This document shows, piece by piece, positions 20,343 to 35,361 of a DNA stretch of 35,361 nucleotides. The notes under the pieces were generated by a model. It was not told the origin of the DNA. It did no database searches and worked only from the letters and a program-made list of their open reading frames with translations. The number at the start of each line of letters is the position of its first letter. The first letter of the stretch is position 1. The DNA comes from Candidatus Omnitrophota bacterium (GTDB taxonomy: Bacteria; Omnitrophota; 4484-213): positions 1 to 35,361 of the forward strand of contig JAGGUG010000044.1 of the NCBI GenBank assembly GCA_021158625.1, given 5' to 3'. The position numbers were made by a program, and so were the translations under genes.

Positions 20343-22040
20343 ATGAGAAAGAAAGGAACCGTTTCCTCGAGAGAACCTCTTCCTGCAGGGATAGATATCG
20401 GCAGTTCTGGCATCAAGTTAGTCCAGTTGGCTCTGAATTCGCAACAAGGATTAGAGATTATCCGGCTTGATCAAGCCCAATACAAAGAGGTAAACCAGGG
20501 GCTTGAGCCGAACGCCAGAAAGATAGAATTGTTGAGGAGGTTGGTGGAGCGGAACAAAATAGGACCGGCGGTGGTAACTTCTCTTTCCATCGATGAACTC
20601 CAGTTCTATAACCTGACTTTACCTTCTATGCCCAGACAGGAACTTTCGGAAGCGGTGCGCTGGAAGATAGAGGAGCTTTTGCCCCCTCATATGCAGATAG
20701 AGCAGGTAGAATTTGATTTTTTTATCCTAAATGAGAAGGAGAGTTTTGAGGTCAAGAGTCAGATAAGTGTACTTGCGGTGGTGGCGGCCAGGGCTGTGGT
20801 CGAAGAGAAGATTAATCTCCTGCAGGAGGTGGGGCTTAAACCTGTGGCGATAGAAGCCGCTCCTTTTGCTCTGGTTGGCTTCAGCCCTAAGATTTCTCGG
20901 GATGACAGGGAAGTAGTGGTGTGGTTAGACCTTGGCGCCGAGCGCACCTCTATGGTTGTTACAAAAGGAAGCAAAATATACTTTTGCCGTAGATTGGCTG
21001 TCAATTCTAACCAGCTCACAAGGGCGATCCTCGAGCATCGTCACTTGGAATGGAACAAGGCAGAAGAACTAAAGATTAAGTGCGGACTTTCTTCAGAGAA
21101 CCTTAGCCAATCTGAAGAAGATAAAACTACATCGCTCTATCTACCTATGGTTTCTACTCTTGAGAACTTGGTAGCTGATATAGAACATTCTTTCAAATAT
21201 TTTTCATATCAAATAACCCAATCTCGAGTGACAAAGTTTGTTCGTGTAGTCCTTAGCGGAGGTGGTGCCAACCTTAAAAATTTACCTCAATTTTTGAGTG
21301 AAAAATTAGAAGCCCCGGTCGAACTTGCCAATCCCTTCAGCGGTCTTAAAATCTCCGAGGAGATTTATAGCCAAAGAGGAGAATTCCTCCAGGCCCCAAG
21401 TGGTTTTGCTCTCGCTTGTGGTTTGGCAGCGAGAGATGTAGATAAAGAGGGTTTCCGTCCGAATCTGGTGCCCAAAAAGGTGGCTAAAGGTTCCAGATTC
21501 TTTTTCTTTGAAAGGGTTTTCCAGAAAACTTTACAGAAGAAGGGGATGCGAATTGGATTATGTATAGCCTGCGCTTTTTTAGTAATTGTGGGATTTCAAT
21601 TAGGTAAAGTAGAACTTTATAAGCGCAGAGTGAATTCAGCCCGAAGGCAAGTTCAGTTAGTCAAGGCCGACTTGCGACGACTCCAATCCCAGCAATTTAA
21701 GCTCGCCGAGAAACAAGCCGAGTTTCAAGATAGGAAATCAAAGTTAGAAGCCCGGCTAAACTTGTTGAAGGTATCCAGACGTCATCCTGAAGAATTCTCC
21801 AGGGTCTTAGCGGAAGTTGCCACCCTTATCCCCGAAGAGATATGGTTGAAGAAATTAATCTACTCTGAGCAAAAGCTTACTATAACTGGCTCTACTTTTG
21901 ATATACAATTGGTAGCGGAATTGATAAAAAAGTTGGAAGCCTCCCCGGATTTCTTTAACCCTGTGTTTAATTATACCCAGAAGGAACCCAAGAAAGAAGG
22001 AACCTATGATTTTGAGATAACCGTGGAGGTAAAACCATAG
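20343..22040 (+). CDS. pilM: Type IV pilus assembly PilM-PilN fusion
   Basis: GIDIGSSGIK, LDLGAERT and LSGGGANLKNL (actin-like PilM), then RPNLVP, a TM segment, a coiled coil and IPEEIWL...ITG (PilN). Confidence 0.85.
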   Translation: MRKKGTVSSREPLPAGIDIGSSGIKLVQLALNSQQGLEIIRLDQAQYKEVNQGLEPNARKIELLRRLVERNKIGPAVVTSLSIDELQFYNLTLPSMPRQELSEAVRWKIEELLPPHMQIEQVEFDFFILNEKESFEVKSQISVLAVVAARAVVEEKINLLQEVGLKPVAIEAAPFALVGFSPKISRDDREVVVWLDLGAERTSMVVTKGSKIYFCRRLAVNSNQLTRAILEHRHLEWNKAEELKIKCGLSSENLSQSEEDKTTSLYLPMVSTLENLVADIEHSFKYFSYQITQSRVTKFVRVVLSGGGANLKNLPQFLSEKLEAPVELANPFSGLKISEEIYSQRGEFLQAPSGFALACGLAARDVDKEGFRPNLVPKKVAKGSRFFFFERVFQKTLQKKGMRIGLCIACAFLVIVGFQLGKVELYKRRVNSARRQVQLVKADLRRLQSQQFKLAEKQAEFQDRKSKLEARLNLLKVSRRHPEEFSRVLAEVATLIPEEIWLKKLIYSEQKLTITGSTFDIQLVAELIKKLEASPDFFNPVFNYTQKEPKKEGTYDFEITVEVKP

Positions 22041-22050
22041 AGAAGAAAAT

Positions 22051-22911
22051 ATGTTCGAGAAGTTAGCAAACTTTAAGAAGTTAACAACGAGAGAGAAGAT
22101 CCTGGTTATAGGCTTGGTCCTGGTTGTGGGGGTTAATTTGTATATTCAGCTCATCCACAAACCCATCTCTAAGAGGCTTAAGAACTATAGATTTCAACTC
22201 TTGAAGACAAAGGGAAAACTTGAAGAGCTTGAGTCCAAACTCCCCGATTTAAGAAAACAGAAGGACGATATCAATTCTATGAAGGTTGAATTCAAGAAGA
22301 TGGAAGAACATATCAAAGAAATGGAGAGAACCCTTCCTGGCCGGGGGCAGACTACTCAGTTCTTAAAGGAGCTAACTCGTGAGGCCAGCGGTCTGAATAT
22401 TGAGCTAACTTCCATCAGGCAGAAGGTCGAGCGGTACGGAGATTATTCTCGACTCTTCGTGGAACTCAAATTCAATGCCTCTTATGGAGATATAGTAAAC
22501 TACATTCGGAACTTGGAGAGCATTTCGCCTTATTTGGCTGTGGAGAAGATGGAGGTCTCGGAACCTAAAAAGATGGAAGAGAAAAGCACAGTGCAACTTG
22601 CGCTCTCGGTATTGTTGGGCGAGGCTTATCTTCCCGAGTCCTTCAAAGCGCCTCCTGAGGGTCCACCCGTCAAGGTAAGTAGAGATATATTTATCTCCTC
22701 AAGAGGTCCTGTTTCGAGTGCAAAAATTCAAGTCAGCGAGCTTAAATTGATGGGTGTGACCTGGCGAGGAGAAAGATCCACCGCAATAATAAATAATGAG
22801 GTAGTCAGGGTAGGCGATAAGGTAGGTAATCTAAGAGTCAAGCAGATACTATTAGAATCAGTTACCCTGACAGATGGGCGAGAGGATTTTGTCTTATCAA
22901 TTGAAAGATAA
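22051..22911 (+). CDS. pilO: PilO/GspM-like protein with a C-terminal PilP/GspC-like beta domain
   Basis: REK-TM-coiled coil-LP...ASYGDIVNYIRNLE pattern; C-terminal LKLMGVTW...AIINNEVVRVGD. Confidence 0.75.
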   Translation: MFEKLANFKKLTTREKILVIGLVLVVGVNLYIQLIHKPISKRLKNYRFQLLKTKGKLEELESKLPDLRKQKDDINSMKVEFKKMEEHIKEMERTLPGRGQTTQFLKELTREASGLNIELTSIRQKVERYGDYSRLFVELKFNASYGDIVNYIRNLESISPYLAVEKMEVSEPKKMEEKSTVQLALSVLLGEAYLPESFKAPPEGPPVKVSRDIFISSRGPVSSAKIQVSELKLMGVTWRGERSTAIINNEVVRVGDKVGNLRVKQILLESVTLTDGREDFVLSIER

Positions 22912-22912
22912 A

Positions 22913-22991
22913 AAATAGAAGCGGAACAACACTAATCTAAAGGCGAATCAACGCTGAGGGCCTAAATCAGCGTTGAGAGGCACTTCTATTT
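22913..22991. repeat. Nested inverted repeat resembling the flanks of the GxxExxY gene, but empty
   Basis: aaatagaag/cttctattt outer IR and tcaacgctga/tcagcgttga inner IR; TAGAAGCGGA is identical to 33341-33350. Confidence 0.7.
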
Positions 22992-23008
22992 AAAAAGGAG
23001 ATAGTGCT

Positions 23009-24844
23009 ATGAAATCAAAAATTATTAGTAAAAACAGGGCGAGGGTTGTGATTATCTTATTTATTGTTGCTCTCTTTCTAACAACCCCACTTGAGAATAT
23101 CAAGTATGCTTACGGAGATGAGAAGGTTTCTACCGGTGGAGAAAGTTCTTCTTTAGCAGGAGAGAAGTCTGCCACCGTGAGTGGCGTTGCTCTCCCAGGC
23201 GTGGCTCACGCCACGCGTGTTGAGTCTTTGGAAGAACGCTTGAAGAAGAAAATTTCTCTTGATTATAAGGATGCTGATCTCCACAGCGTGCTGCGCTCCA
23301 TAGCCTGGACATATGGGCTCAATTTGGTTACCTCTCCTGATATCAAGGGCAAGGTGACCATAAGTTTACAGGATGTGACCATAGAGGAAGCGCTGGATGC
23401 AATTCTCGCTATAAATGGGCTCACTTACACAAGGCGTAAAGACATCATCTTTATAGCCCCGGGCGACTCCGAGATGGTAGAGATAAAAAACGAAGTTGTC
23501 TTTCTTAAATATATCGCTGCCGGGGAAGCGCAGAATCTTTTAAGAAGAGCTCTTTCACCCAAGGGGGATATAAAAATAGATGAGTTGTCAAATAGCCTGA
23601 TAGTAAGCGATTTCTCTAGCAATATAGCGAAGTTAAAAGAGCTCTTGGGAAAGATAGATGTAGCTCCCACCCAGGTTTTGATTGAAGCAAAGATAGTAGA
23701 TATGACCTCAACCGATTTAAGAGCGTTGGGTGTTAAATGGGATGCGGACTATTCCCCGGGACATGGTATCTTTGACAGGTCTACCAAATACCCTGAACGG
23801 CTGAAAGGCACGATAGATATGACTGAGGAGTCTGCCGGCCTGAGCGGAGGGCAGCTGACCATAGATACCTTTACCCTGAAACATCTTACGGTCACCGCTA
23901 CAATAGATGCCCTGGTGAAGAATGGAAAAGCCAATCTTCTGGCAAGTCCCTCCATTGCTGTCTTGAATGGTCAGGAGGCCCGAATCATAATCGGCGAAAG
24001 ATATCCCTATAAGGAGCGTACCCAGACCGCCACGGGCACCACCGAGACAACAAAGTTTGTGGATATTGGAACCACTCTCAGGGTGACCCCTCAGGTCAAC
24101 GAGGATGGTTACATCACTATGAGAGTCCATCCCGAGGTATCTTCATTATACGCTTCTCTCGATGCAGGACCAAGGATCACCACCCGCGAAGCCGATACCA
24201 CCGTGAGAGTGAAGGAAGGAGAAACTCTGGTTATAGGAGGGCTGATTAAACAGAAGGACAACCGCTCCCGCGGAAAAATCCCCATCTTTGGTGATATTCC
24301 CCTAATCGGATTTCTATTCTCCCGAAGCGAAAGGGATATGGAACAGAAGGAATTGGCGGTATTTATAACCCCCCGGATATTAAGGTCCAGAAAGGAGATG
24401 GAACTCCTTAGCAAGGAGAAGGTCGCCAGGGAAGAGGTATATGTGACCTTGGAGAAAACTGCGCAGCTTTCAATTGTATCCAGGTTATTTAAAAAGGCGA
24501 ATAACCTGGATAAGGGTTACGGACTGGCGAGCCGCAGAAAGAGTGAGCAATTCAGAAAGGCTCAGGCTTTGAGTTTGTTTGAGCACATCTTTACTGAATT
24601 CCCCGACAGTGAGAAGGCTCCGGAGGCGAAGTTTCGGGCAGGAATGATATATTACAGAGACCTGAAGGATTATAAGAAGGCAAAAGATATTTTCTCCCGG
24701 GTAATCTCTGATTATCCAGAAAGCCCCTTCGCAACAAAGGCTAAGTATTATCTTCGCAAAATGGAACCCAAGAAACCTGAGAAAAGAAAAAAGATAAAAC
24801 GGAGACTAAAACCTGACTTAGAGCCCACCTGGAAAATAAAGTAG
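23009..24844 (+). CDS. pilQ: Secretin (PilQ/GspD family) with a C-terminal TPR extension
   Basis: STN/N domains, QVLIEAKIV, LASPSI..LNGQEA.I.IG, LRVTPQV, GETLVIGGLI, IPIFGDIPLIGFLF and ELAVFITPRI motifs. Confidence 0.9.
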   Translation: MKSKIISKNRARVVIILFIVALFLTTPLENIKYAYGDEKVSTGGESSSLAGEKSATVSGVALPGVAHATRVESLEERLKKKISLDYKDADLHSVLRSIAWTYGLNLVTSPDIKGKVTISLQDVTIEEALDAILAINGLTYTRRKDIIFIAPGDSEMVEIKNEVVFLKYIAAGEAQNLLRRALSPKGDIKIDELSNSLIVSDFSSNIAKLKELLGKIDVAPTQVLIEAKIVDMTSTDLRALGVKWDADYSPGHGIFDRSTKYPERLKGTIDMTEESAGLSGGQLTIDTFTLKHLTVTATIDALVKNGKANLLASPSIAVLNGQEARIIIGERYPYKERTQTATGTTETTKFVDIGTTLRVTPQVNEDGYITMRVHPEVSSLYASLDAGPRITTREADTTVRVKEGETLVIGGLIKQKDNRSRGKIPIFGDIPLIGFLFSRSERDMEQKELAVFITPRILRSRKEMELLSKEKVAREEVYVTLEKTAQLSIVSRLFKKANNLDKGYGLASRRKSEQFRKAQALSLFEHIFTEFPDSEKAPEAKFRAGMIYYRDLKDYKKAKDIFSRVISDYPESPFATKAKYYLRKMEPKKPEKRKKIKRRLKPDLEPTWKIK

Positions 24845-24925
24845 AGGGATGCTTAGGGAGGCTCTTATGTTTCCTTATAGTCCCTATGAATGCCATAACG
24901 AGAGTGACCCGCGAGGAGTAAGAAA

Positions 24926-27157
24926 ATGAAAAAGAACAAAATAATATATTTATTCTTTCTCGGTCTACTAATTTCTCTTTTAGGAGATTTAAGGTCAGTC
25001 TACGCGCTGGATGAGCAACCTACTCGCCTCGCTGAGTCGGCGCTTGTCTCGGGGCGCTCGCCTCTCGGCGAAGCCGAGGAAAATCAGGGGAAGCGGGTTA
25101 AACAATCCACAAGCGTAAGTGAGGCAATGGCGCATTACAATTTGGCTAAGAAGTATTTTTTATCCGGAGAGTATACAAAAGCCCGCCAGGAATTTGGCTT
25201 AGCCGCCCAATTAGATCAGAGTAAACGCAAGTCCGTTTATCGCCTTTCCCGGATGTATCTAAAGAAAATTGAGGAATTAGAAAAGAAGAGGAAACAGACA
25301 GAGGCGAGAAAGAGATGGGAAAAGATGAGGGCGGAGAAGTTAAGAAAGCAAGCCGAACTCAAAGCCAGGCGCGAAGCAGAAAGGAAAGCCAGACAGGAAG
25401 CCGCGCAGAGGGCTAAGGAAGCCACACAAAAGAGAAGAGCTGAAGTTAGAGCCAGGAAGGAAGAGCTCAAGAACTACTATACCAAAGGCAAAATCCATTA
25501 TCACAAAGGACAATATCAAGAGGCGATTGAGGAATTTAAGAAAGTTTTAAGTTTAGACCCAGAACATAAGGCAGGGAGATATATTGAGCTTTCCTTGAAG
25601 GCGATTGAAAAAAGAAAGCAGAGAAAACTTTTAGCTCAGAAGAAGGCAGAGCAACAAGCCAAGAGACAAGAGGAAGTGAGACCTCCCTCTCAAGAGCGGG
25701 AGGTTAAACCGGGCGAGAAAGAAAGTCTGAAGGAAGAAATAGAGCGACTTAAGCGTCAGATTGAAGAAGAAAATACTCGACTTAGGCTCGAGATAGAGAA
25801 ATTGAGAGAATCCCAGGAAAAGGCAAAGGAAAGGGAGTTGAGGCCAAAGGTTGAGGGGATGTTAGCGAAAAAGGAGGCCTTGGCTCTGGAAGAAGCAAAA
25901 TTAAAGGCATTCGTTGCGGGTCTTCAGAAGCTTGAAGCCAGACAGAGGAGACTTAAGCGGGAGGCCGAAGTTAGGATGAGTTTTAACAAAAAGGAGAGAC
26001 TCAAAGCAAGGGAAAGAAGAATAAGAGAAGAAGAGGCTAAGCTTAAGCTCAAACTCAAGGAAGAAAAGAACGCTCTCAGAGCCCGGCTTGAAGATGAATC
26101 AAAAAGAAAATTGAACTCTCTCCTTGAGGAAAAAGAAATTTTTTTCATTAATCAACTTGAAGAATACAAGCGAATACTCCAGGAGAAAGAAATTCCCTCT
26201 GTGGTTCAATTAAAAGAGAAAAAAAAGAAGATTTGTGCCCAATTGGCAAGTCTCCAGGAAGAGAAAAAGAGGCTTGAAGAGCTAAAACGCTCAAGGGCTG
26301 AACTAAGGAAAAAATTAGAAAGGAAATTCCAGCGACAGATTAAAGAGAAACTCACTCCCGGGCCCTCACTTCGGGTTGAAGTTAAAGAGGAGGATGAAGA
26401 ACTCAAAGCCAATTTGACAGCTGTTAATGAGAAGATAAAAAGGGTAGAGAAGATAAAGAAAGAGATAGAAGAGGAGTTACTGAATGAGGAGAAGAAACAG
26501 CAGAAGCAGAAGGAAAAGGCTCTGAAGGAAGAGAAAGCGCGAATTAAGCGAGAGTTTGAAAGGCAAAAGACTCGATTGGCTCTTGAGTTCCAAAAGGAGT
26601 TAAAGGCAAATTTTCAGACCCGGCTTAAGGCTCTGGAAGCAGACCGTAGGACCAAAATTGAGTCAATCTTAAAAGAGGAAGAAAAAAAAGAGAAGTTGGC
26701 TTCTGAATCAGAAAAGAAGTTACTTCAGGCGATTCTCAGAAAGTTAGGAGAGGTTAAACAACAAAGAGTTCAGGCCCAGGATAGACTTAAGGTCATTGAA
26801 ACTCTACGAAGAGAGCTTGAGGCACAGAGGAAAGCCGAACTCAAAGCCAGGCGCGAAGCAGAAAGGAAAGCCAGACAGGAAGCCGCGCAGAGGGCTAAGG
26901 AAGTAGAAGCCCCACCCATAGAACCCCCGGCCGGGGAATACTTAATAAGCGAGGGCGATACATTAGAGATCTTTGTTTACCTTCCTGACCTTCCAGAAGA
27001 AGTCAGCGTCAACTTGGATGGCGAGATTTCCTATCCTCTAATTGGCACGCTCCAGGCGAAAGGAAAAACCATAGACCAATTAAAGGAAGAAATCAGTGAG
27101 AGATTATCTCAATTTATAAATAATCCCTATGTCTCATTAACGATAAAAGGAAAATAG
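24926..27157 (+). CDS. Exported TPR, long coiled-coil and C-terminal Poly_export (Wza-like) domain protein
   Basis: Signal-like N-terminus; two TPR-like units; ~450 aa of E/K/R-rich helix; YLISEGDTLEIFV...V.LDGEISYPLIGTLQAKGKTIDQL...NPYV. Confidence 0.75.
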   Translation: MKKNKIIYLFFLGLLISLLGDLRSVYALDEQPTRLAESALVSGRSPLGEAEENQGKRVKQSTSVSEAMAHYNLAKKYFLSGEYTKARQEFGLAAQLDQSKRKSVYRLSRMYLKKIEELEKKRKQTEARKRWEKMRAEKLRKQAELKARREAERKARQEAAQRAKEATQKRRAEVRARKEELKNYYTKGKIHYHKGQYQEAIEEFKKVLSLDPEHKAGRYIELSLKAIEKRKQRKLLAQKKAEQQAKRQEEVRPPSQEREVKPGEKESLKEEIERLKRQIEEENTRLRLEIEKLRESQEKAKERELRPKVEGMLAKKEALALEEAKLKAFVAGLQKLEARQRRLKREAEVRMSFNKKERLKARERRIREEEAKLKLKLKEEKNALRARLEDESKRKLNSLLEEKEIFFINQLEEYKRILQEKEIPSVVQLKEKKKKICAQLASLQEEKKRLEELKRSRAELRKKLERKFQRQIKEKLTPGPSLRVEVKEEDEELKANLTAVNEKIKRVEKIKKEIEEELLNEEKKQQKQKEKALKEEKARIKREFERQKTRLALEFQKELKANFQTRLKALEADRRTKIESILKEEEKKEKLASESEKKLLQAILRKLGEVKQQRVQAQDRLKVIETLRRELEAQRKAELKARREAERKARQEAAQRAKEVEAPPIEPPAGEYLISEGDTLEIFVYLPDLPEEVSVNLDGEISYPLIGTLQAKGKTIDQLKEEISERLSQFINNPYVSLTIKGK
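25350..26903 (+). repeat. Exact 72-nt direct repeat (25350-25421 and 26832-26903)
   Basis: Both copies encode AELKARREAERKARQEAAQRAKE with identical DNA, 1482 nt apart. Confidence 0.92.
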
Positions 27158-27210
27158 CGTTATAGCGTAATAAAGTTATAGATTTCAACTCAATAACCCA
27201 ATAACAAAGA

Positions 27211-27262
27211 AAGACCCTTATTTACCCTTATATTCCCTTATTCACCCTTATTTAGCCTTATT
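27211..27262. repeat. CCCTTAT array with a 10-nt period
   Basis: aagaccctta tttaccctta tattccctta ttcaccctta tttagcctta, followed by antisense ataagggg. Confidence 0.9.
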
Positions 27263-27303
27263 AAAATAAGGGGAGACAATAACCCAATAACACAATAACG
27301 AGT

Positions 27304-28521
27304 ATGCCTACTTTCACTTACAAAGCCCGAGATAGCTTTGGTGAACTTATCAGTGGGGCTATAGAAGGTGACAATAAGAAAGCCGTAGCCAAGAGCCTTA
27401 ACAGATTGGGTTATAGTGTTATCCAGATAAGCTTGCAAAAATCACTCCAACCAATCCTCACAGATTTTATCAAGGGTTTTCGTCCCATAAGTAAACAAGA
27501 AATAACCGTCTTTACCAGACAATTGGCTACCCTTAGTCGTTCGGGGATGGCTATATCCCCGGCTCTTTCCATAGCGTGTGAGCAGACCACCAATCCTAAA
27601 TTTCGCCTTATCTTAGGGGATGTGGTTAATCATGTCCAGGGGGGTATGAGCCTCTCAGAAGCCCTCTCAAAATATCCTGAGGTTTTCTCGGATCTGTTTG
27701 TAAATATGGTCAAAGTGGGGGAGACAGGTGGGATTTTAGATAAGGTCCTGGATAGACTGGTTACCTTAAGCACTCAGGAACTCGAAAGGAACACGCGCAT
27801 AAGATCAGCATTAATCTATCCTATAGTTCTGGTAGCTGTTGCCTTCTTGGTAGTAAATTTTCTTCTAATAGGAGTTCTTCCGAAGTTTGTTGCTGTATTT
27901 AGGGCATCTCAGGCGAGATTACCGCTGCCCACCCAGCTTATTCTGAGTTTTAGTTGGATTTTGAGGCATCTGTGGTTACCTCTATTGATTGGTGTGGGGT
28001 GCCTCGCAGTTTGGTTTAAGAGGTACATAAAACAACCTGCAGGAAGATACAGGTTTGATTCGAAGGTTTTAAAACTACCCCTGTTTGGTAAACTTTATAC
28101 TAAAATAATGATATCCCGTTTTACAGGTGTCCTCTCAGCGCTCATCGCCTCAGGAGTTCCCCTGCTTCAAGCCCTGGGCGTTGTGGAGAAGACCATTACC
28201 AATATGGTCATCCGCCGCATAGTTCAGAATATACGCACCTCCATCACTGAAGGACAATCTCTGGCCGGAGCATTTAAGACCAGTGGTTTCTTCCCGCCTA
28301 TGGTTGTCCAGATGATATCGGTAGGAGAAAAGACGGGCAAGCTCGATGAAATGCTTCGGGATATTTCTTCTTTTTATGACCCGGAGATAGAATACACGAT
28401 TAGAAATCTAACTACCCTCTTAGAACCATTTATGTTGTTAGCAATGGGGGCTATGGTTGCCTTCATCGCTTTGTCGGTGTTATTACCGATATTCAACTTG
28501 ATTAAAGTGTTCCGGGGATGA
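27304..28521 (+). CDS. pilC: Type IV pilus / T2SS platform protein PilC/GspF
   Basis: MPTFTYKARD, FTRQLATL, GETGGILD, ALIYP and VGEKTGKLDEML...LLEP motifs. Confidence 0.95.
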   Translation: MPTFTYKARDSFGELISGAIEGDNKKAVAKSLNRLGYSVIQISLQKSLQPILTDFIKGFRPISKQEITVFTRQLATLSRSGMAISPALSIACEQTTNPKFRLILGDVVNHVQGGMSLSEALSKYPEVFSDLFVNMVKVGETGGILDKVLDRLVTLSTQELERNTRIRSALIYPIVLVAVAFLVVNFLLIGVLPKFVAVFRASQARLPLPTQLILSFSWILRHLWLPLLIGVGCLAVWFKRYIKQPAGRYRFDSKVLKLPLFGKLYTKIMISRFTGVLSALIASGVPLLQALGVVEKTITNMVIRRIVQNIRTSITEGQSLAGAFKTSGFFPPMVVQMISVGEKTGKLDEMLRDISSFYDPEIEYTIRNLTTLLEPFMLLAMGAMVAFIALSVLLPIFNLIKVFRG

Positions 28522-28525
28522 GTAT

Positions 28526-28801
28526 AACCCTTATTTTCCGGGGATGAGTATGACCCCTATTTACCCTTATAGTCCCTTATTCTTTATTGAGGAAAACCCT
28601 TATTTAATAGAAGTCCCTTATTAAGAGAAAACCCTTATTTACCCTTATTTAATAAGAATCCCTTATTAAGAGAAAACCCTTATTTACCCTTATAGTCCCT
28701 TATTGAGGGAAGACCCTTATTTACCCTTATTTAATAGAAGTCCCTTAATTCGTCCTTATTGAAAATGAAAGAAAGACTTTATTCGCCCTTATTCACCCTT
28801 A
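28526..28801. repeat. CCCTTATT array
   Basis: About 20 imperfect units with mixed 10-nt and 15-17-nt spacing. Confidence 0.95.
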
Positions 28802-28808
28802 CGCCACT

Positions 28809-29264
28809 ATGAACGCAATAATGAAGAAAGGTTTTACTTTACTCGAGCTTCTAATCGTAATAAGTATAATCGCTATCCTCGCAGCTACGATGATTCCCAA
28901 CTTTATCGGCTTCGATGCAGAAGCAAAACTTGCTGCTACTCAAAGCAACCTTAATACCCTCCGCACTCGCATTGTTCTCTTTAGAACTAAAGAGGGACAT
29001 TATCCCGAAACTCTGGAAGAACTATTAGAGACCACCTATAGCGATATGGGAATAGAACGGCCATATCTGGATAGTATACCTGTGGAGTTCATCTCTTCAA
29101 AGCAGGGAAATGCTGATGTTGAGAACCAGACTTCCGAGGACCCCCTACCCGGAGACGGCGGCTGGGTCTATTTTGTAGACAAAGCAAAAGTAGTTATAGA
29201 CTGGGATATGCCCCTCGATTCAAAATGGGGAAAGTACGAGGGGGAGGTGCCATCGGAATGGTAG
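28809..29264 (+). CDS. Prepilin, GspG/PilA-like major (pseudo)pilin
   Basis: KKG|FTLLELLIVISIIAILAATMIP with Glu5; GHYP..LEEL. Confidence 0.9.
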   Translation: MNAIMKKGFTLLELLIVISIIAILAATMIPNFIGFDAEAKLAATQSNLNTLRTRIVLFRTKEGHYPETLEELLETTYSDMGIERPYLDSIPVEFISSKQGNADVENQTSEDPLPGDGGWVYFVDKAKVVIDWDMPLDSKWGKYEGEVPSEW

Positions 29265-29283
29265 TTCGTTATTGTTATAAACG

Positions 29284-29326
29284 AAGAACCCTTATTTACC
29301 CTTATTTTCCCTTATCTTCCCTTATT
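29284..29326. repeat. CCCTTAT array with a 10-nt period
   Basis: Four units followed by antisense ctaagggg. Confidence 0.9.
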
Positions 29327-29355
29327 AAAACTAAGGGGAGACAATAAATGACGCA

Positions 29356-29712
29356 ATGAACACAATAACAAACAAGGGGGTTGTGCTGTTAAGCGTTGTA
29401 ATTATTCTGCTGACCATAACCTTAATCGGTGGAAGCCTTGCCGCCTTTTTATCATCGGTTAATATCTCAACGTGCAATATAGCCGACCAAACAAAGGCGC
29501 TATACCTGGCTGAAGCAGGCATTGCTCATGCGATTCATAATCTCCGCACCGAGGCAGGAGAGGGTGGCATCCTGGATAAGACGATTGGACCCATTACTCT
29601 TGGAGAAGGAACCTATCAGGTTTCAGTGGATTTTGCCCAATCGCTGATAACCTCAACCGGGGAGGTGCGCGGAACAAGGCGAACACTCCAGTTTCAGTAT
29701 AAACCCCTATAG
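29356..29712 (+). CDS. PilX/GspK-like minor pilin
   Basis: KG|VVLLSVV without Glu5; KALYLAEAGI and ITSTG motifs typical of PilX N-terminal domains. Confidence 0.8.
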   Translation: MNTITNKGVVLLSVVIILLTITLIGGSLAAFLSSVNISTCNIADQTKALYLAEAGIAHAIHNLRTEAGEGGILDKTIGPITLGEGTYQVSVDFAQSLITSTGEVRGTRRTLQFQYKPL

Positions 29713-29737
29713 CGTTATAGGGTATAGTGTTATAGAC

Positions 29738-29955
29738 GAAGACCTTTATTTTCCCTTATTTACCCTTATTTAATAGAAGTCCCTTATTAAGAGAAAACCC
29801 TTATTTAATAAGAATCCCTTATTGAGGAAAACCCTTATTTACCCTTATAGTCCCTTATTGAGGAAAACCCTTATTTACCCTTATTTGATAGAAGTCCCTT
29901 AATTCGTCCTTATTGAAAATGAAAGAAAGACTTTATTCGCCCTTATTCACCCTTA
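29738..29955. repeat. CCCTTATT array
   Basis: About 15 units; the 3' 88 nt (29888-29975) are identical to 28734-28821. Confidence 0.95.
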
Positions 29956-29962
29956 CGCCACT

Positions 29963-30379
29963 ATGAACGCAATAACAAATAAAGGTTTTACCTACATCGA
30001 GCTTCTAATAACCCTGGTGATAATGGCGGTTTTGTTTGTCCCGATGATGCAAGTATTTTCCCATTTCCTCCATTCCACCGTGGTATCCCAGGATTTCATA
30101 ACCGCAACAAATTTAGCCAGATGGGAGATGGAGCGGGTCAAAAATCTGAATATGACCAAAGCCCAACTTAGAGAAGCGGGCGATAGCATATATCCGTCGG
30201 GTGAACCGCTTGAGATGAATAATGCAAAGTGGCGGATAAGCAGAAAGGTATTCAAAGAGACTGATCCTCTGGAGGTTCGTGTTTCTGTCTTCCATGACGG
30301 TGAACCCGACAGGCCCCTCGTGACCCTGGTGACGCTAATTGAGGATACGATTTGGGAGGAAATTCGCCCATTGGAATAA
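29963..30379 (+). CDS. PilV/GspI-like minor pilin
   Basis: KG|FTYIELLITLVIMAVL; ATNLARWEME. Confidence 0.85.
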   Translation: MNAITNKGFTYIELLITLVIMAVLFVPMMQVFSHFLHSTVVSQDFITATNLARWEMERVKNLNMTKAQLREAGDSIYPSGEPLEMNNAKWRISRKVFKETDPLEVRVSVFHDGEPDRPLVTLVTLIEDTIWEEIRPLE

Positions 30380-30384
30380 AGATG

Positions 30385-30516
30385 TTCCCTTATTCACCCT
30401 TATCAAGGAAGATCCTTATTTTCCCTTATCAAGGAAACTCCCTTATCAAAGGAAGTCCCTTATCAAAGGAAGCCCCTTATTTTCCCTTATCAAGGGACCC
30501 TTATTCACCCTTATCA
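30385..30516. repeat. CCCTTATC(AA) array
   Basis: About 10 units of the TC subtype. Confidence 0.95.
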
Positions 30517-30531
30517 AACCAAGAGGCAGAA

Positions 30532-31746
30532 ATGGTCTATCAACCCAAAGACCCCTTAGGTTTTACCCTAATTGAGCTACTGATTGCTATCGCCATATCG
30601 GTAGTAATTAGCGCGGCGATATACTTCAGTCTGAGTAGTGCCCTGGAGAGCTGGGGATATTCCCGGGACCATCTTGCTCTTCAGAAGGTTATTTCAGAGG
30701 TTATGGACGAAGTTGCGGACGGGACCTTCAGAGCATATGGACTAAAAGACAGTTTAGAAATACTATCAGCGAGCGGGACAAAGATAGAGTTTGTCCCCCC
30801 CTGGACCGACGATACCCATATGTTTATCTCTGGTGACCTAATTTATACCTTGAACCGTCGACCCAAGCCCGGGTCGGCAGTGCCAGTTGGAGAGGTTAAA
30901 TTCCCCGGCTCAGATGAGTATCGAACCATACCCGTAACTCTTGTTGAAACAGAATTTATAAAAGAACCTCAGGTTAAGATTGGCTTGGTGCCGCCTGAAG
31001 GGAGCCAACTTCGCTTTACCTACCATCCTGACCCCAAAACAAACCCCGATACAATAAAGACTATCTGGTGGGACCCGGAGGAGCAACAACTCTATTCAGA
31101 GGATATAGATGGGATAGAGAATATCTCTAGGAACCCTCTTGGAGTAAAGCTCACCGATTTTCGCCTGCGATACTACGATAACGCAAATAACCCGGTAGGC
31201 GACCAGGGCGGGCTCGACCAGAATACTCTGCTGACGGTCACCGGAATCGAGGTATGGATGAAGGCTGAACTTGGCCAATATTCACAAGAATTAGTGAGTT
31301 TCGTAAACCTGCGCAATTCACCAATGCGTAAAGGTTTCCTGACTTTAAGAGAAGGCACTAAATTTCCCATTCCTGACAGCCACAACATCCACACCCTTTT
31401 ATTGACCAACTTTTCGGGTGTAGGGAATCTGGACGAACTTCAGCTTGAAGCCACTCCATCCACAGGAAAGAGCTGGGGGGTAACTATAAAGTTTTCAAAA
31501 ACGGGTTCAGCTAAAGCCATAATAGAGACTCTTATTATAGAATATCCACCTGGCCATTCCATCTATACTGAACACCCTCGCTCAAGCGTTGAGCTGGGAT
31601 TGGATCTGCTTACCCTGGGTGCCAATGGCCTCTATGACTACGATGACGACCCGGACATCGAGGACTTTGTCCTGCTGAAGGATGAGGTGGTATTAGAGGT
31701 GAAGAGGATGGATATCGAAGGTGCCGGGCTTTTCGTTAGACCATGA
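30532..31746 (+). CDS. PilW/GspJ-like minor pilin with a leader copied from the four-helix-bundle gene
   Basis: MVYQPKDPLG|FTLIELLIAIAISVVI; GAGG RBS before ATG 30532. Confidence 0.85.
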   Translation: MVYQPKDPLGFTLIELLIAIAISVVISAAIYFSLSSALESWGYSRDHLALQKVISEVMDEVADGTFRAYGLKDSLEILSASGTKIEFVPPWTDDTHMFISGDLIYTLNRRPKPGSAVPVGEVKFPGSDEYRTIPVTLVETEFIKEPQVKIGLVPPEGSQLRFTYHPDPKTNPDTIKTIWWDPEEQQLYSEDIDGIENISRNPLGVKLTDFRLRYYDNANNPVGDQGGLDQNTLLTVTGIEVWMKAELGQYSQELVSFVNLRNSPMRKGFLTLREGTKFPIPDSHNIHTLLLTNFSGVGNLDELQLEATPSTGKSWGVTIKFSKTGSAKAIIETLIIEYPPGHSIYTEHPRSSVELGLDLLTLGANGLYDYDDDPDIEDFVLLKDEVVLEVKRMDIEGAGLFVRP

Positions 31747-32041
31747 AAAGACCCTTATTGAAGGAAGACCCTTATCAAAGGAAGTCTCTTATCAAGGGAA
31801 GCCCCTTATTTCCCCTTATCTCCCTTATTCACCCTTATCAAGGAAACTCCCTTATCAAGGGAAGACCCTTATCAAGGAAAAACCCTTATCTTCCCTTATT
31901 TTCCCTTATTCACCCTTATCCAAGAAAGTCCCTTATCAAAGGAAGACCCTTATCTTCCCTTATTTTCCCTTATCAAGAGACCCTTATCAAAGGAGGACCC
32001 TTATTTTCCCTTATCAAGAGACCCTTATTCACCCTTATCAA
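31747..32041. repeat. CCCTTATC(AA) array
   Basis: About 22 units; the longest array, directly 5' of the four-helix-bundle gene. Confidence 0.95.
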
Positions 32042-32055
32042 ACCAAGAGGCAGAA

Positions 32056-32610
32056 ATGGTCTATCAACCCAAAGACCCCTTAGGTTATAAGAAGCTCCTG
32101 ACCTGGAAACAGGCCGGCGAGATTTATCACAAGACAAAAGATTTTACCAAGAAATACCTCAATAGAACAACAGATAGAAGATTAATTGCTCATATGGATG
32201 ATTCCGCCCGGTCAGTTCAACGTAATATAGAAGAGGGTTATAAAAGGGCAACGACAAAGGAGTATGTTGAATTTCTTGGTTTCTCCCGCGCCTCTTTGGA
32301 AGAATTGAAGGGGGATGTTGAGGAGTTGAAAAGGGAATGGAAAGAAGGGGTAAGATGGGTCGATAAAGGGAAAATAGAGGAGTTGTTGGACCTTATTTAT
32401 GGCGAAGATTGTATGATGGGCAGGCAGATTGCATCTCTGGAGAGGAAGATGGTAGAGGAGAAGACTCTGCCGCAGAAAGAGATGATAATGAGAAGTTGGA
32501 AATTGGATAAATTGAGAGAGAAAAAGTTCTGGAGGTCTATTAAAGATAAATTTGGGCTTGAGAAGGATGAAAAAGGGAGGATAAGAAAGAATGATGATGA
32601 GAAAGAATAA
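32056..32610 (+). CDS. Four-helix-bundle protein (23S rRNA-IVP / TIGR02436-like family)
   Basis: GYKKLLTWKQA...HMDDSARSVQRNIEEGY.R...EYVEFLGFSRASLEEL pattern. Confidence 0.88.
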   Translation: MVYQPKDPLGYKKLLTWKQAGEIYHKTKDFTKKYLNRTTDRRLIAHMDDSARSVQRNIEEGYKRATTKEYVEFLGFSRASLEELKGDVEELKREWKEGVRWVDKGKIEELLDLIYGEDCMMGRQIASLERKMVEEKTLPQKEMIMRSWKLDKLREKKFWRSIKDKFGLEKDEKGRIRKNDDEKE

Positions 32611-32618
32611 GGAACAGA

Positions 32619-32820
32619 TTTCCCCTTATTTACCCTTATTAAGGAAACTCCCTTATCAAAGGAAGTCTCTTATCAAGGGAAGACCCTTATCAAGGAAAAA
32701 ACCCTTATCTTCCCTTATTTTCCCTTATTCACCCTTATCAAAGGAAGTCCCTTATCAAGGGAAGCCCCTTATTTTCCCTTATCTTCCCTTATCAAGAGAC
32801 CCTTATTCACCCTTATCAAA
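32619..32820. repeat. CCCTTATC(AA) array
   Basis: About 15 units directly 3' of the four-helix-bundle gene. Confidence 0.95.
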
Positions 32821-32833
32821 CCAAGAGGCAGAA

Positions 32834-33343
32834 ATGGTCTATCAACCCAAAAACGCAATAACTCCCGCCTGCCGGACGGGCAGGCAAAAACGCAATAACC
32901 CAATAACAAATAAGTGGCTATCAGTATTATTATTAGTGGTCTTCAGTGTCCTTTTCGCTACGGTTGCCTGTGCTGACGAAAAGGTATGGAGTGCTGGCGG
33001 AGATGAAACGACCTGGAGCGACGACGACAACTGGTTTCCGGCCGTTGAACCCAACAGTGAAGACGATGTCACCATAGATATGGAGGATGCCTCTGTTACT
33101 TGCACCGAGACCTTTAAAGCAAAGTCTATCGTTGTGGGTGGCAGAACGAGTTCGACCCTTACCAGCAACAACTTTGTCTACGGAACAGTAACGCCCGATT
33201 CGGCATCTGATGTGGCATTAGACAATAAAAAGGGCGGCACGATTATCCTGAAGGGTGCTGGAACGCTCACCCTGGGAGGTCAATATAGGAGTTCAGAAGA
33301 ATCTCTCATCTCCGAGCCGAGCTTTATGTTCTGGGTAAAGTAG
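32834..33343 (+). CDS. Small secreted acidic beta-rich protein (WS..NW motif, G8/adhesin-like) with a mosaic repeat-derived N-terminus
   Basis: Hydrophobic signal ending ACA|DEK; WSAGG...WSDDDNW.P..EP...DDVTI; GAGG RBS before ATG 32834. Confidence 0.7.
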   Translation: MVYQPKNAITPACRTGRQKRNNPITNKWLSVLLLVVFSVLFATVACADEKVWSAGGDETTWSDDDNWFPAVEPNSEDDVTIDMEDASVTCTETFKAKSIVVGGRTSSTLTSNNFVYGTVTPDSASDVALDNKKGGTIILKGAGTLTLGGQYRSSEESLISEPSFMFWVK

Positions 33344-33820
33344 AAGCGGATCTCCGCGGATAGCGACGCAGAAAGACGCGGATAGAATAATGGGAAAGTT
33401 ACTATATGAAAAGGAGTCGTACGAGATACGCGGCGCGTGTTTTGCAGTTTGGAAAGAATTCGGCAGTGCTTTTAAAGAGACAGTAATTGAAAAAGCCTTG
33501 GCAAAAGAGTTTAAGGAGAGAGGATTGTCTATAGATCGCCAGAAACGGATAGATATATTCTATAGGGATGAAAAAGTGGGCGTTTATATTCCAGATTTTG
33601 TAATAGATAATAAAATTATTATAGAGATTAAGGTTAAACCTGTATTGATTCAAGAAGACAGGCGACAGTTTTGGCATTACCTTAAAGGTTCTCATTATCG
33701 TCTTGGGTTTTTGGTCAATTTCGGTACGAAGAAACTTGAGATTGTTAGGAGGGTATATGATTCTGCGCGCACAAGATATCAGCGTATATCCGCGTAGATA
33801 TCCGCGTCTATCTGCTTCTA
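33341..33820. mobile_element. Inverted-repeat-bounded cassette carrying the GxxExxY gene
   Basis: tagaagcgga versus tctgcttcta (9/10 complementary); agacgcggata versus tatccgcgtct (11/11); tandem (ACGCGGA)/(TCCGCGT) units. Confidence 0.6.
33390..33797 (+). CDS. GxxExxY family protein (PD-(D/E)xK nuclease-like fold)
   Basis: LLYEKESYEIRGACFAVWKEFGSAFKETVIEKAL, PDFVIDNKIIIEIK, QFWHYLK and GFLVNFG; the signature is the variant GSAFKETVI. Confidence 0.9.
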   Translation: MGKLLYEKESYEIRGACFAVWKEFGSAFKETVIEKALAKEFKERGLSIDRQKRIDIFYRDEKVGVYIPDFVIDNKIIIEIKVKPVLIQEDRRQFWHYLKGSHYRLGFLVNFGTKKLEIVRRVYDSARTRYQRISA

Positions 33821-33848
33821 AATAACCCAATAACAGGAGGTAAAAGCG

Positions 33849-35361
33849 ATGAAAAAGAAAATTTGGATGTTGGTGTTAATAGCAATGGTCATCTTACTTG
33901 GCGTCCACTATCTTTACGCCGGCCAGCTCCTCTTTGACGGTGTTCCCGTGGACATCACCACGACCGACAATGAGGACCTGGTCATTGTCCCCGGCAGTGG
34001 TGGTAATACTCAAATAGGCGATGCCACCGGCGCAAATACCCACGCCACCTCAAACGACGATTTGCATGTGACAGGCGTTTTAGAAACCGACGGTGTCCTT
34101 TATTCTGACTCAGGCATAATTTCAGGTTCCACCATCCGCTCGGACACCGACTCAACAGATTCGCTCGGTTCAAGCTCAACTGCCTGGTTGAACCTCTATG
34201 TAGATTCAGTCAAGACTGTATCCGGCACGAACCTTATTCTTCTCCCAACCTCGGCATATACCATAATCGGCGATGCTGGCTCAGCAGGCCATGTCTCAGC
34301 CAACGACGACCTCTTTGTATCAGGCGCTTTGGAGGTTGACGGCACAATCTACGCAGACGGCGCGATTACCGCTGGGTCAAATATCATTTCCGATACCGAC
34401 TCAACCGACTCGCTCGGTTCCTCTAATATCGCCTGGTTGTACCTCTATGTAGATACTATCTCCACAACATCAGGGACAGACCTTTCGTTATCTCCAGCAT
34501 CAGGAAGCGGCGTGGATGGCTCGGTAACCCGTTCTGCCGCAACAGGTAACGAAATTGCCTACGACCTCGCCGCCACTGTAGAGAAAGCCTCGGGAGACTT
34601 TACCGGCCTCAGACTCAATGTCACAGATACCGCCTCACCCGGGCTGCTTAAACTGCAAGACCTGCAAGTCGGGGGGACTTCCATATTGCAGGTTTATGAA
34701 GACACAAACTCTGCCAACTATGGCCGTCTATCAGTCGGCTCTGCCCCCTGGGATGGCGAAGCATCAGGACACTTTGTTGGCTCCTCAGACGGCACCCAGA
34801 TTGCCGTAAATGCACCGGATACCTTTACCGGAAATCTTATTGACTTACAAGTCGCCGGTGTTTCCAAATACAAAGTTAGTTATGAGGGTATAGTTACCCA
34901 GGTTGGCTCCCAGACCGTTACTGGAAATATCGTTCCCTCGGCAGATTCAGAGTATAACCTCGGCTCAACCTCGGCTGCCTGGTTGAATCTTTATGCCGAC
35001 AATATCAAGACAGTGAGCGGCACGAACCTTATTCTTCTCCCAACCTCGGCATATACCATAATCGGCGATGCCGGCTCAGCAGGCCATGTCTCAGCCAACG
35101 ACGACCTCTTTGTCTCCGGAGCCGCAGAAGTCGACGGCACCCTCTACGCCGATGGCGGAATAACCGCCACCACTGTAAATGCCACCACCTTTGATACCAA
35201 TGTTGCTGCTGCCGGCCTCACTCTCTCCGGGACGACCCTTGCTGCTGACGGCACCGATACCGACATCAACATCGCGATTACCCCCCAGGGCGCAGGCGAG
35301 GTGGATATCAGCAAGGTCGATATCGATGGCGGGACTATTGACGCGACAACCATCGGGGCGA
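33849..35361 (+). CDS. Large exported S/T/D/G-rich repeat protein (adhesin/fibre-like), truncated by the window end; absent from the ORF track
   Basis: AGGAGG RBS; MKKKIWMLVLIAMVILLGVHYLYA signal; open to the window end; repeats SDTDSTDSLGSS..AWL.LY.D and IGDA....NDDL.V.G..EVDG. Confidence 0.88.
   Translation, partial: MKKKIWMLVLIAMVILLGVHYLYAGQLLFDGVPVDITTTDNEDLVIVPGSGGNTQIGDATGANTHATSNDDLHVTGVLETDGVLYSDSGIISGSTIRSDTDSTDSLGSSSTAWLNLYVDSVKTVSGTNLILLPTSAYTIIGDAGSAGHVSANDDLFVSGALEVDGTIYADGAITAGSNIISDTDSTDSLGSSNIAWLYLYVDTISTTSGTDLSLSPASGSGVDGSVTRSAATGNEIAYDLAATVEKASGDFTGLRLNVTDTASPGLLKLQDLQVGGTSILQVYEDTNSANYGRLSVGSAPWDGEASGHFVGSSDGTQIAVNAPDTFTGNLIDLQVAGVSKYKVSYEGIVTQVGSQTVTGNIVPSADSEYNLGSTSAAWLNLYADNIKTVSGTNLILLPTSAYTIIGDAGSAGHVSANDDLFVSGAAEVDGTLYADGGITATTVNATTFDTNVAAAGLTLSGTTLAADGTDTDINIAITPQGAGEVDISKVDIDGGTIDATTIGA
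34223..35113 (+). repeat. 96-nt near-exact direct repeat (34223-34318 and 35018-35113)
   Basis: One synonymous mismatch (gct/gcc); 795 nt apart and in frame. Confidence 0.9.

Follow-up and report, generated by a model that had tools for sequence, protein, structure and literature searches.

A GxxExxY gene cassette and a gene-less hairpin in a type IV pilus operon of Candidatus Omnitrophota: probable members of one family of intercistronic palindromic elements

Miniature inverted-repeat transposable elements (MITEs) are gene-less, internally deleted forms of insertion sequences (ISs) that share the same terminal inverted repeats and whose insertions vary between strains. Inverted repeats can fold into cruciforms, and branched or cruciform DNA is cleaved by the small junction-resolving nucleases T7 endonuclease I and archaeal Hjc. 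Two other systems combine a short gene with inverted repeats. In the available excerpts on repetitive extragenic palindromic (REP) sequences (PMC3116915, PMC3337134), the enzyme is RAYT (REP-associated tyrosine transposase) and its dispersed hairpins are REPINs (REP doublets forming hairpins), while the intervening sequence (IVS) in the 23S rRNA of Coxiella burnetii has, in the excerpt available of PMC4990558, a near-perfect stem of 28 bp of the RNase III type. Uncultivated bacteria commonly encode GxxExxY (PDDEXK_3) proteins, to which no function has been assigned; the part of a review that lists the family gives its role as 'Unknown' (PMC3424549), and our literature search found no description of GxxExxY word-array cassettes. 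Here we analyse a stretch of 35,361 nt from Candidatus Omnitrophota (GCA_021158625.1, contig JAGGUG010000044.1; hereafter the window), which is contig C87 of a 1.18-Mb, 128-contig genome and in which a type IV pilus operon spans 20.3-35.4 kb. Within this operon lie a GxxExxY gene enclosed by inverted arrays of short words at 33.3-33.8 kb (the cassette) and, between pilO and pilQ at 22.9 kb, a hairpin that holds no gene. An initial annotation, made from the window alone, had proposed that the two are filled and empty forms of one minimal mobile unit. We conclude, with a probability of roughly 0.6, that both belong to a single family of intercistronic palindromic word-array elements with gene-carrying and gene-less forms, a REPIN/RAYT-like layout and a PD-(D/E)xK nuclease. 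At the level of sequence comparison, the data establish that the two forms are homologous, that gene and words are co-inherited, that gene-less copies are numerous in relatives and that copies come and go at gene junctions.

The cassette, the hairpin and their kinship

All strings and coordinates that the initial annotation had given for the cassette and the hairpin were found in place (Table 1). The outer word of the cassette is TAGAAGCnGAT on the left arm, and its inverse, ending in GCTTCTA, closes the right arm. As had been claimed, the first three bases of the left arm (TAG) are the stop codon of the upstream open reading frame (ORF), 32591-33343, and the right arm encodes the last seven codons and the stop of the GxxExxY gene. 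A repeat finder places the inverted arms at 33332-33384 and 33777-33829 (53 nt, 75% complementary), and a profile of relatives' arms recovers both, the left at 33341-33385 (E = 1e-9) and the right at 33820-33776 (E = 2.8e-13).

The hairpin begins 4 nt past the pilO stop and ends 20 nt ahead of the pilQ start, and TAGAAGCGGA begins both at its first base, 22916, and at 33341. It has an inner stem of 10 bp (22948-22957 with 22967-22976) and an outer stem of 9 bp (22913-22921 with 22983-22991) by the repeat finder, and the predicted RNA fold of 22905-23000 (-24.2 kcal/mol, z = -4.3) was matched in stability by none of 200 shuffles. Compared directly with the cassette, the hairpin gives little signal: the shared 10-mer occurs three times in the genome against about 2.2 expected, which is chance level; short-word BLAST against the cassette arms stays at noise level (14 nt with one mismatch, E = 22); and a gapped chain score of both arms ranks it third among non-self loci, with loose alignments. 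The picture from relatives is different. An nhmmer profile made from four gene-less hairpins (three of L106 and one of L034), with no window sequence included, has 22916-22983 as its top match in the 1.18-Mb genome (E = 2.7e-9; model positions 1-68 of 83), a broader profile of 20 hairpins gives E = 3.3e-4 at the same place, an arms-only profile of relatives returns it as the fourth best match (E = 0.59), and the hairpin is identical at 21 of 21 nt to the start of a gene-less hairpin of L034 (E = 2.8e-5 in a 1.87-Mb database). The four-hairpin profile and the identity with L034 therefore make the 22.9-kb hairpin a shortened, diverged member of the gene-less family, in keeping with what had been proposed for it. 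It is closest to a gene-less type of 83-86 nt, found three times in L106 (two copies free and one joined to a gene cassette) and once in L034, and it contains no trace of ORF codons. Neither 22916-22988 nor the cassette arms are among the 21 terminator-like sites in 22000-34500, and the stem is not followed by a T-run. Searching the genome with a strict word regex gave no other clusters of the TAGAAGC/ACGCnGAT word family, which is represented there by a single intact gene and a single decayed hairpin.

The arms share a distinctive design. Each is a row of 8-nt words set 10-12 nt apart, about one turn of the DNA helix, with the words inverted between the arms. When the 23 copies with a length of exactly 92 nt are compared, pairing reaches 95% at the 33 conserved (word) positions and 18% at the 13 variable ones; seven of the spacer positions give 161 pairs, of which just 6 are Watson-Crick and 146 purine-purine or pyrimidine-pyrimidine. 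The arms of the window cassette have the same habit of pairing words and non-pairing spacers. Such a phased design with unpaired spacers fits protein-binding sites, fits a constraint against double-stranded RNA or a long perfect palindrome, and argues against a simple IVS-type RNase III stem.

Relatives of both forms in other genomes

Relatives of the cassette came from a genome scan with the GxxExxY protein (L106, L102, L103/L104, L114 and L110) and from a metagenome scan with PilC (L034, with 62% PilC identity, and L069, with 79% across the C-terminal 121 residues). The nearest relatives of the GxxExxY protein are from Omnitrophota-labelled genomes, with identities to the window protein of 81% in L106, 80% in L102 and 71% in L103/L104 (range 59-81% with L110 and L114 included). 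The terminal and inner words of all these relatives, L034 and L069 included, are those of the window cassette, which bears out the earlier view of the gene and its inverted tandem-word arms as one unit. More widely, at 35 of 76 homologue loci a 6-mer repeated upstream has its reverse complement repeated downstream, compared with 0 of 69 when the flanks are displaced by 400 nt. This displaced-flank test replaced a flank-pairing test controlled with mismatched flanks, in which 16 of 76 loci exceeded the 99th percentile and 48 of 76 the 95th percentile of a control that is weakened because words are common to several loci. Homologues of at least 47% identity, from several phyla, mostly have ACGCnGAT-type words, and remoter homologues use other words. 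Since protein similarity tracks the words, gene and arms are inherited as one unit; this co-inheritance would be compatible with, rather than proof of, a protein that recognises the words. Decay is frequent: five further GxxExxY loci in the genome are frameshifted, truncated or interrupted, each with its own inverted arrays of different words, and 5 of 47 close homologue matches for which translation was attempted have in-frame stops.

Gene-less copies outnumber gene-carrying ones in the relatives. The terminal-word pattern occurs 52 times in the genome of L103, 19 times in that of L102 and 13 times in that of L106, against 1, 0 and 0 for the reversed control. The genome G042 has at least 16 hairpins of 90-93 nt and two gene-carrying cassettes of 478 nt, and a comparison of one such hairpin with G044 gave about 40 places of 83-95% identity. 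The search for the flanks with and without the ORF that the initial annotation had suggested has therefore turned up, in relatives, many gene-less copies and few gene cassettes. Because these multi-copy hairpin families are near uniform, spread of the mini form itself fits.

Placement was scored in the related genomes G042 and G044, where 33 of 53 fetched loci could be parsed by strict end patterns. In 27 of the 33 parsed copies the stop codon of a long ORF lies -3 to +9 nt from the element end, and in nine the TAG of the element is itself that stop codon; two more have a stop at 12-16 nt and four have none. The next start codon is mostly 9-24 nt past the other end, to which the 22.9-kb hairpin conforms. 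The proposed targeting of gene junctions is thus upheld as a description of where copies sit, while the targeting itself is less certain, as selection for harmless sites rather than choice of site may have placed them there. By our count, 24 of the 31 copies that could be classified have the asymmetric centre in one orientation relative to their neighbouring genes, a bias that is only a hint of strand-specific insertion or selection because the copies come from kin genomes. All copies end TA...TA, which may reflect a TA duplication or belong to the repeat itself. By our reading of the flanks, the window cassette and L212 are consistent with a TA duplication and other copies with none; the one empty site is too diverged to discriminate between the two. 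Turnover is seen at two hairpin sites of G042: at one, G044 has flanks of 76% and 69% identity with an unrelated 31-nt spacer between them, and at the other it has a hairpin of a different word family.

The pilus operon itself gives a similar picture. In six relatives (L002, L004, L005, L035, L036 and L058) pilO and pilQ range from overlapping to 16 nt apart, compared with 97 nt in the window, and because these junctions are tight we take the 22.9-kb hairpin to be an insertion and not a conserved terminator. The missing T-run and the absence of the hairpin from all six junctions likewise dispose of the suggestion that it might be a conserved terminator unrelated to the cassette. The check for a GxxExxY gene at this junction that had been suggested was negative: no such gene lies between pilO and pilQ in any relative examined, and L106 has its intact cassette at another junction of the operon; in the same-genus genomes G001 and G002, PilO matches are of paralogue level only. 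That other junction is pilC-pilin, where L106 has the cassette right after the pilC stop, L034 has arms that enclose a gene cut to its 25-31 C-terminal codons (a remnant form seen at two junctions) and L069 has a gene-less mini form with arms around about ten remnant codons. The idea that loss of the gene leaves a hairpin scar is thus partly supported, by in-place decay in L034 and L069, as one route to gene-less forms beside the near-uniform, multi-copy gene-less families. L106 has family members at four consecutive junctions.

Sequencing runs add closer strains. At both sites the contigs of runs X1-X3, which may stem from the source sample, match the window exactly; run X5, from a different study, is 95-99% alike. 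In X5 the pilin end is joined to a right-arm-like stretch followed by the start of the next gene (the pilin-p118 junction), at the p118-p138 junction an arm runs into the leader codons of a 138-aa pilin-like gene, and loose ends consist of a right-arm end just 5' of pilC and a TAGAAGC word just 3' of a 464-aa ORF. The run also has a GxxExxY cassette, on a contig that starts at the left arm. At the junctions where X5 has TAGAAGC-family arms, the window has CCCTTATT-type arrays.

In the window, the gene and its right arm can be read in a second frame. An ATG preceded by AGGAGG sits in the +1 frame within the conserved R-R-V-Y-D codons; its stop is just past the arm in the window, and in L034, L069 and L106 the printed translations continue this frame into the pilin gene, replacing the usual short leader. 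The major pilins concerned (L069:448-520, L034:3060-3190, L106:1865-2010) have no short leader of their own and are read from the ATG in the GxxExxY 3' end, and in L034 and L069 Ala instead of the usual Gly precedes the mature FTL... N-terminus. On contig C49 of the genome (883-948, minus strand), a stretch resembling the cassette 3' end and right arm (arms profile E = 0.0048; 16 of 16 nt equal to the right arm) supplies an ORF with its ribosome-binding site, start codon and signal-peptide-like N-terminus; this may be an arm co-opted as leader coding sequence, comparable to the pilins of L034, L069 and L106.

Some other loci are recorded here as separate observations. On C82 (3600-4400, minus strand), a truncated GxxExxY gene with inverted GACGCCAA-type arrays lies exactly between two tRNA genes. 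On C56 (1300-2100), a G+C-rich palindromic insert splits a GxxExxY gene that has CGCGAATTACGC-type arrays on either side; this gene is directly followed by a four-helix-bundle-like ORF, so that the same two cassette genes are paired as in the window. L103 and L104 are identical gene-carrying cassettes about 6.7 kb apart on one contig, with common downstream and different upstream flanks, the divergence beginning exactly at the A-run before TAGAAGC; they may represent a segmental duplication ending at the left end of the element. At L088:3090-3350, a gene-less hairpin of CACAGAT words lies between a pilin-like gene and a homologue of the 504-aa ORF.

The GxxExxY protein and competing explanations

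The window protein matches PF13366 (E = 6.3e-31; 107.6 bits against a cut-off of 22) and TIGR04256 (E = 1.4e-30; 106 bits against a cut-off of 35). Residues E30, D69, E79, K81 and R120 are invariant in an alignment of 43 sequences, and the first four are the catalytic set of PD-(D/E)xK nucleases, kept in the window protein. The motif that names the family, G-x-x-E-x-x-Y, reads A27, E30 and I33 in the window protein and its closest relatives, which retain only the Glu. An AlphaFold2 model has a mean predicted local distance difference test score (pLDDT) of 91.2, with the arm-encoded tail (128-135) below 50 and predicted to be disordered, and Foldseek matches it loosely to Cas4 SSO0001 (E = 8e-4), lambda-exonuclease-like proteins and Hjc (template modelling scores 0.4-0.5). 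Among proteins of solved structure, T7 endonuclease I is the closest in sequence, with a weak similarity over the D...E.K motif (PDB E = 0.07-0.3). A Pfam scan found PF13366 and a weak, below-cut-off match to Phage_endo_I (E = 2e-4) only, with no HUH, DDE, serine or tyrosine transposase, and PADLOC gave no defence-family match for this protein or for the four-helix protein encoded nearby. On its catalytic residues and modelled core fold, the window protein is a member of the PD-(D/E)xK superfamily, and nuclease activity is predicted.

If cassette and hairpin are two forms of one element family, one or more dimers of the nuclease would bind the phased words of both arms and would cut at the conserved ends, mobilising or maintaining both forms as RAYT does for REPINs. 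The unpaired spacers would prevent the palindrome from becoming a long perfect stem, and the terminal TAG, together with the outward-reading start in the 3' end of the gene, would limit damage to neighbouring genes. In a broader and more tentative form, which we put at somewhat under even odds, a widespread class of mobile DNA in bacteria could encode just one protein, a PD-(D/E)xK nuclease of about 130 aa that reads helically phased 8-nt words, moves or copies itself and gene-less hairpins of 70-93 nt into the spacer separating a stop codon from the following ribosome-binding site, and crosses phyla (Omnitrophota-, Patescibacteria- and Planctomycetota-labelled bins). As part of this same broader proposal, the arms could also become leader or signal-peptide coding sequence of a downstream gene.

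A number of points weigh against these proposals. The part given to the nuclease is read from its association with the arms only, and to our knowledge a lone PD-(D/E)xK nuclease has no known strand-transfer activity. The five genomes with gene and hairpins were found via the gene, which biases their co-occurrence. With a single intact gene and a single decayed hairpin here, the word family may be extinct in this genome. The target-site duplication model (TA or none) fits only some copies, selection in short spacers can by itself bring copies near stop codons, the copies of G042 and G044 are not independent because the two genomes are kin, and 20 of the 53 fetched loci fall outside the strict end patterns.

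Other explanations account for some of these data. The chance-level frequency of the 10-mer, the noise-level BLAST match and the arms-only profile are what one would see if hairpin and arms resembled each other by chance and the former were an ordinary terminator or operon hairpin; we find this very hard to credit, given a relatives' profile whose best match in the genome starts exactly at 22916, the unbroken 21-nt identity with L034, and a hairpin that is not conserved in six relatives and has no T-run. It is improbable, if less extremely so, that the hairpins are intercistronic RNA structures useful to the host (3'-end stabilisers, processing sites or attenuators, as proposed for REP) with GxxExxY a passenger or RNA-handling factor. 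Such structures would account for the exact seating of copies after a stop codon and before the following ribosome-binding site, for different word families at the same junction in different lineages, for the one prevailing orientation of the asymmetric centre (24 of 31) and for the stable fold of 22905-23000. They would not be expected to be missing from pilO-pilQ in six relatives or from an orthologous G042 site that is empty in G044, nor would a stabiliser stem need spacers that avoid pairing or sequence-specific words common to the flanks of nuclease genes across genomes and phyla; there is, moreover, no T-run after the stem and no Rfam match.

We also think it quite improbable that the arms act in the manner of an IVS, forming a long stem in the transcript from which RNase III excises the cassette RNA out of the operon mRNA. 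An ORF inside a terminal inverted repeat recalls the Coxiella IVS as described in the same excerpt (PMC4990558), the window also has a 23S_rRNA_IVP-family gene, and one degraded GxxExxY copy lies between two tRNA genes. However, the arms are just 75% complementary, spacers that hardly pair interrupt the paired words of the 92-nt relatives every 8-11 bp, the surrounding operon codes for proteins and not for rRNA, and cutting of RNA leaves the spread of DNA copies unexplained. A last alternative concerns only the origin of the 22.9-kb hairpin, which might be the in-place remnant of a full cassette that lost its gene at pilO-pilQ rather than a gene-less arrival. The series at pilC-pilin, with the whole gene in L106, 25-31 codons in L034 and about ten in L069 between intact arms, provides a precedent. 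We nevertheless consider it unlikely for this hairpin, which has no ORF codons and matches best the 83-86-nt gene-less type of L106 and L034; no gene is present at pilO-pilQ in the relatives examined, and the 90-93-nt copies of G042 and G044 are near uniform, where independent deletions would leave ragged ends. A common element family with gene-carrying and gene-less forms therefore remains the explanation that we prefer.

The operon and comparison with known systems

The genes and arrays around the two features are listed in Table 1. The C-terminus of the 250-aa ORF upstream of the cassette is native, because its L035 orthologue ends in a similar peptide. Other junctions of the operon nearly all carry CCCTTATT-type word arrays with a period of about 10 nt, some of which close in a short hairpin, and the four-helix (23S_rRNA_IVP) gene is bordered by long direct copies of these arrays. 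The parallel that the initial annotation had drawn between the GxxExxY and four-helix cassettes is therefore a loose one, as the arrays of the latter are direct and not inverted. DNA around the start codon of the four-helix gene is repeated in the N-terminal part of the 250-aa ORF, and a leader peptide matching that start-codon stretch precedes the mature N-terminus of the 464-aa pilin-like ORF. A contig of the X5 strain lacks 42 nt of the pilQ N-terminal region, without a change of frame (window 23175-23218). Rfam has no family at the hairpin or the cassette, one tRNA being its sole match in the window.

Table 1. Positions in the window of the cassette, the hairpin and neighbouring features
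Feature	Position	Strand	Remarks
pilM/N fusion			type IV pilus operon, 5' of pilO
pilO-like gene	22051..22911	+	PF04350, E = 2.2e-9; 5' of the 22.9-kb hairpin
Gene-less decayed hairpin, 73 nt	22916..22988	+	four-unit left arm 22916-22959, short loop, shortened right arm
pilQ secretin gene	23009..24844	+	PF00263, E = 1.7e-51; 3' of the 22.9-kb hairpin
TPR/Poly_export protein gene			type IV pilus operon, between pilQ and pilC
pilC	27304-28521		type IV pilus operon
pilin and several pilin-like genes			type IV pilus operon, after pilC
CCCTTATT-type arrays	27157-27303, 28522-28808, 29265-29355, 29713-29962, 31745-32055, 32611-32850		operon junctions
Four-helix 23S_rRNA_IVP-family gene	32056-32610
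250-aa ORF	32591..33343	+	no family match; immediate 5' neighbour of the cassette
Left arm of cassette	33341..33384	+	four units of about 11 nt: outer TAGAAGCGGAT word, three inner ACGCnGAT-type words
GxxExxY / PDDEXK_3 gene, 135 aa	33390..33797	+	profile matches
Short +1-frame ORF	33757..33825	+	exits the gene 3' end through the right arm
Right arm of cassette	33777..33820	+	four inverted words, the last GCTTCTA
504-aa ORF	33849..35360	+	3' neighbour of the cassette; own ribosome-binding site, 29 nt past the right arm

If the partnership of repeats and nuclease is real, it would give the GxxExxY family a function and add a new enzyme class to the few known to spread palindromic repeats. Much intergenic repeat DNA of small genomes, and the frequency with which assemblies break in it, would be explained as well. 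With their non-pairing spacers, the phased words offer a concrete candidate for a recognition code. The seating between stop codon and ribosome-binding site, together with arms that serve as pilin leaders, indicates how such elements can persist within essential operons.

Among described systems, REPIN/RAYT, as set out in the excerpts cited above (PMC3116915, PMC3337134), is the closest in layout: in both, a single-gene enzyme is bordered by palindromic repeats that are also dispersed without the gene between other genes, and a genome has few enzyme genes and many hairpins (here, in relatives, two genes against at least 16 hairpins in G042, and about 40 places that match such a hairpin in G044). 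In contrast to what those excerpts describe, the enzyme here is a predicted PD-(D/E)xK nuclease and not an HUH/Y1 (IS200/IS605-like) transposase, each arm consists of four phased 8-nt words with non-pairing spacers and not of a single REP palindrome, and the GxxExxY cassettes cross phyla and decay often. The 23S rRNA IVS of Coxiella, within the compass of the excerpt cited (PMC4990558), resembles the cassette in having a small, decay-prone ORF of unknown function in terminal inverted repeats, a sporadic distribution and suspected horizontal transfer. It differs in its location in rRNA helices and not between protein genes, in an ORF for the four-helix S23p, a different protein family, and in a stem that is near perfect, whereas the cassette arms are interrupted every 8-11 bp. 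Terminal inverted repeats, autonomous and gene-less forms and insertions that differ between strains are shared with IS/MITE pairs, from which the present elements depart in having no transposase of a known class, a very precise intercistronic placement and flanks that fit a target-site duplication in some copies only. With T7 endonuclease I and Hjc, finally, the GxxExxY protein has in common its small size, a PD-(D/E)xK core and the aligned E...D...E.K residues, a similarity that is weak.

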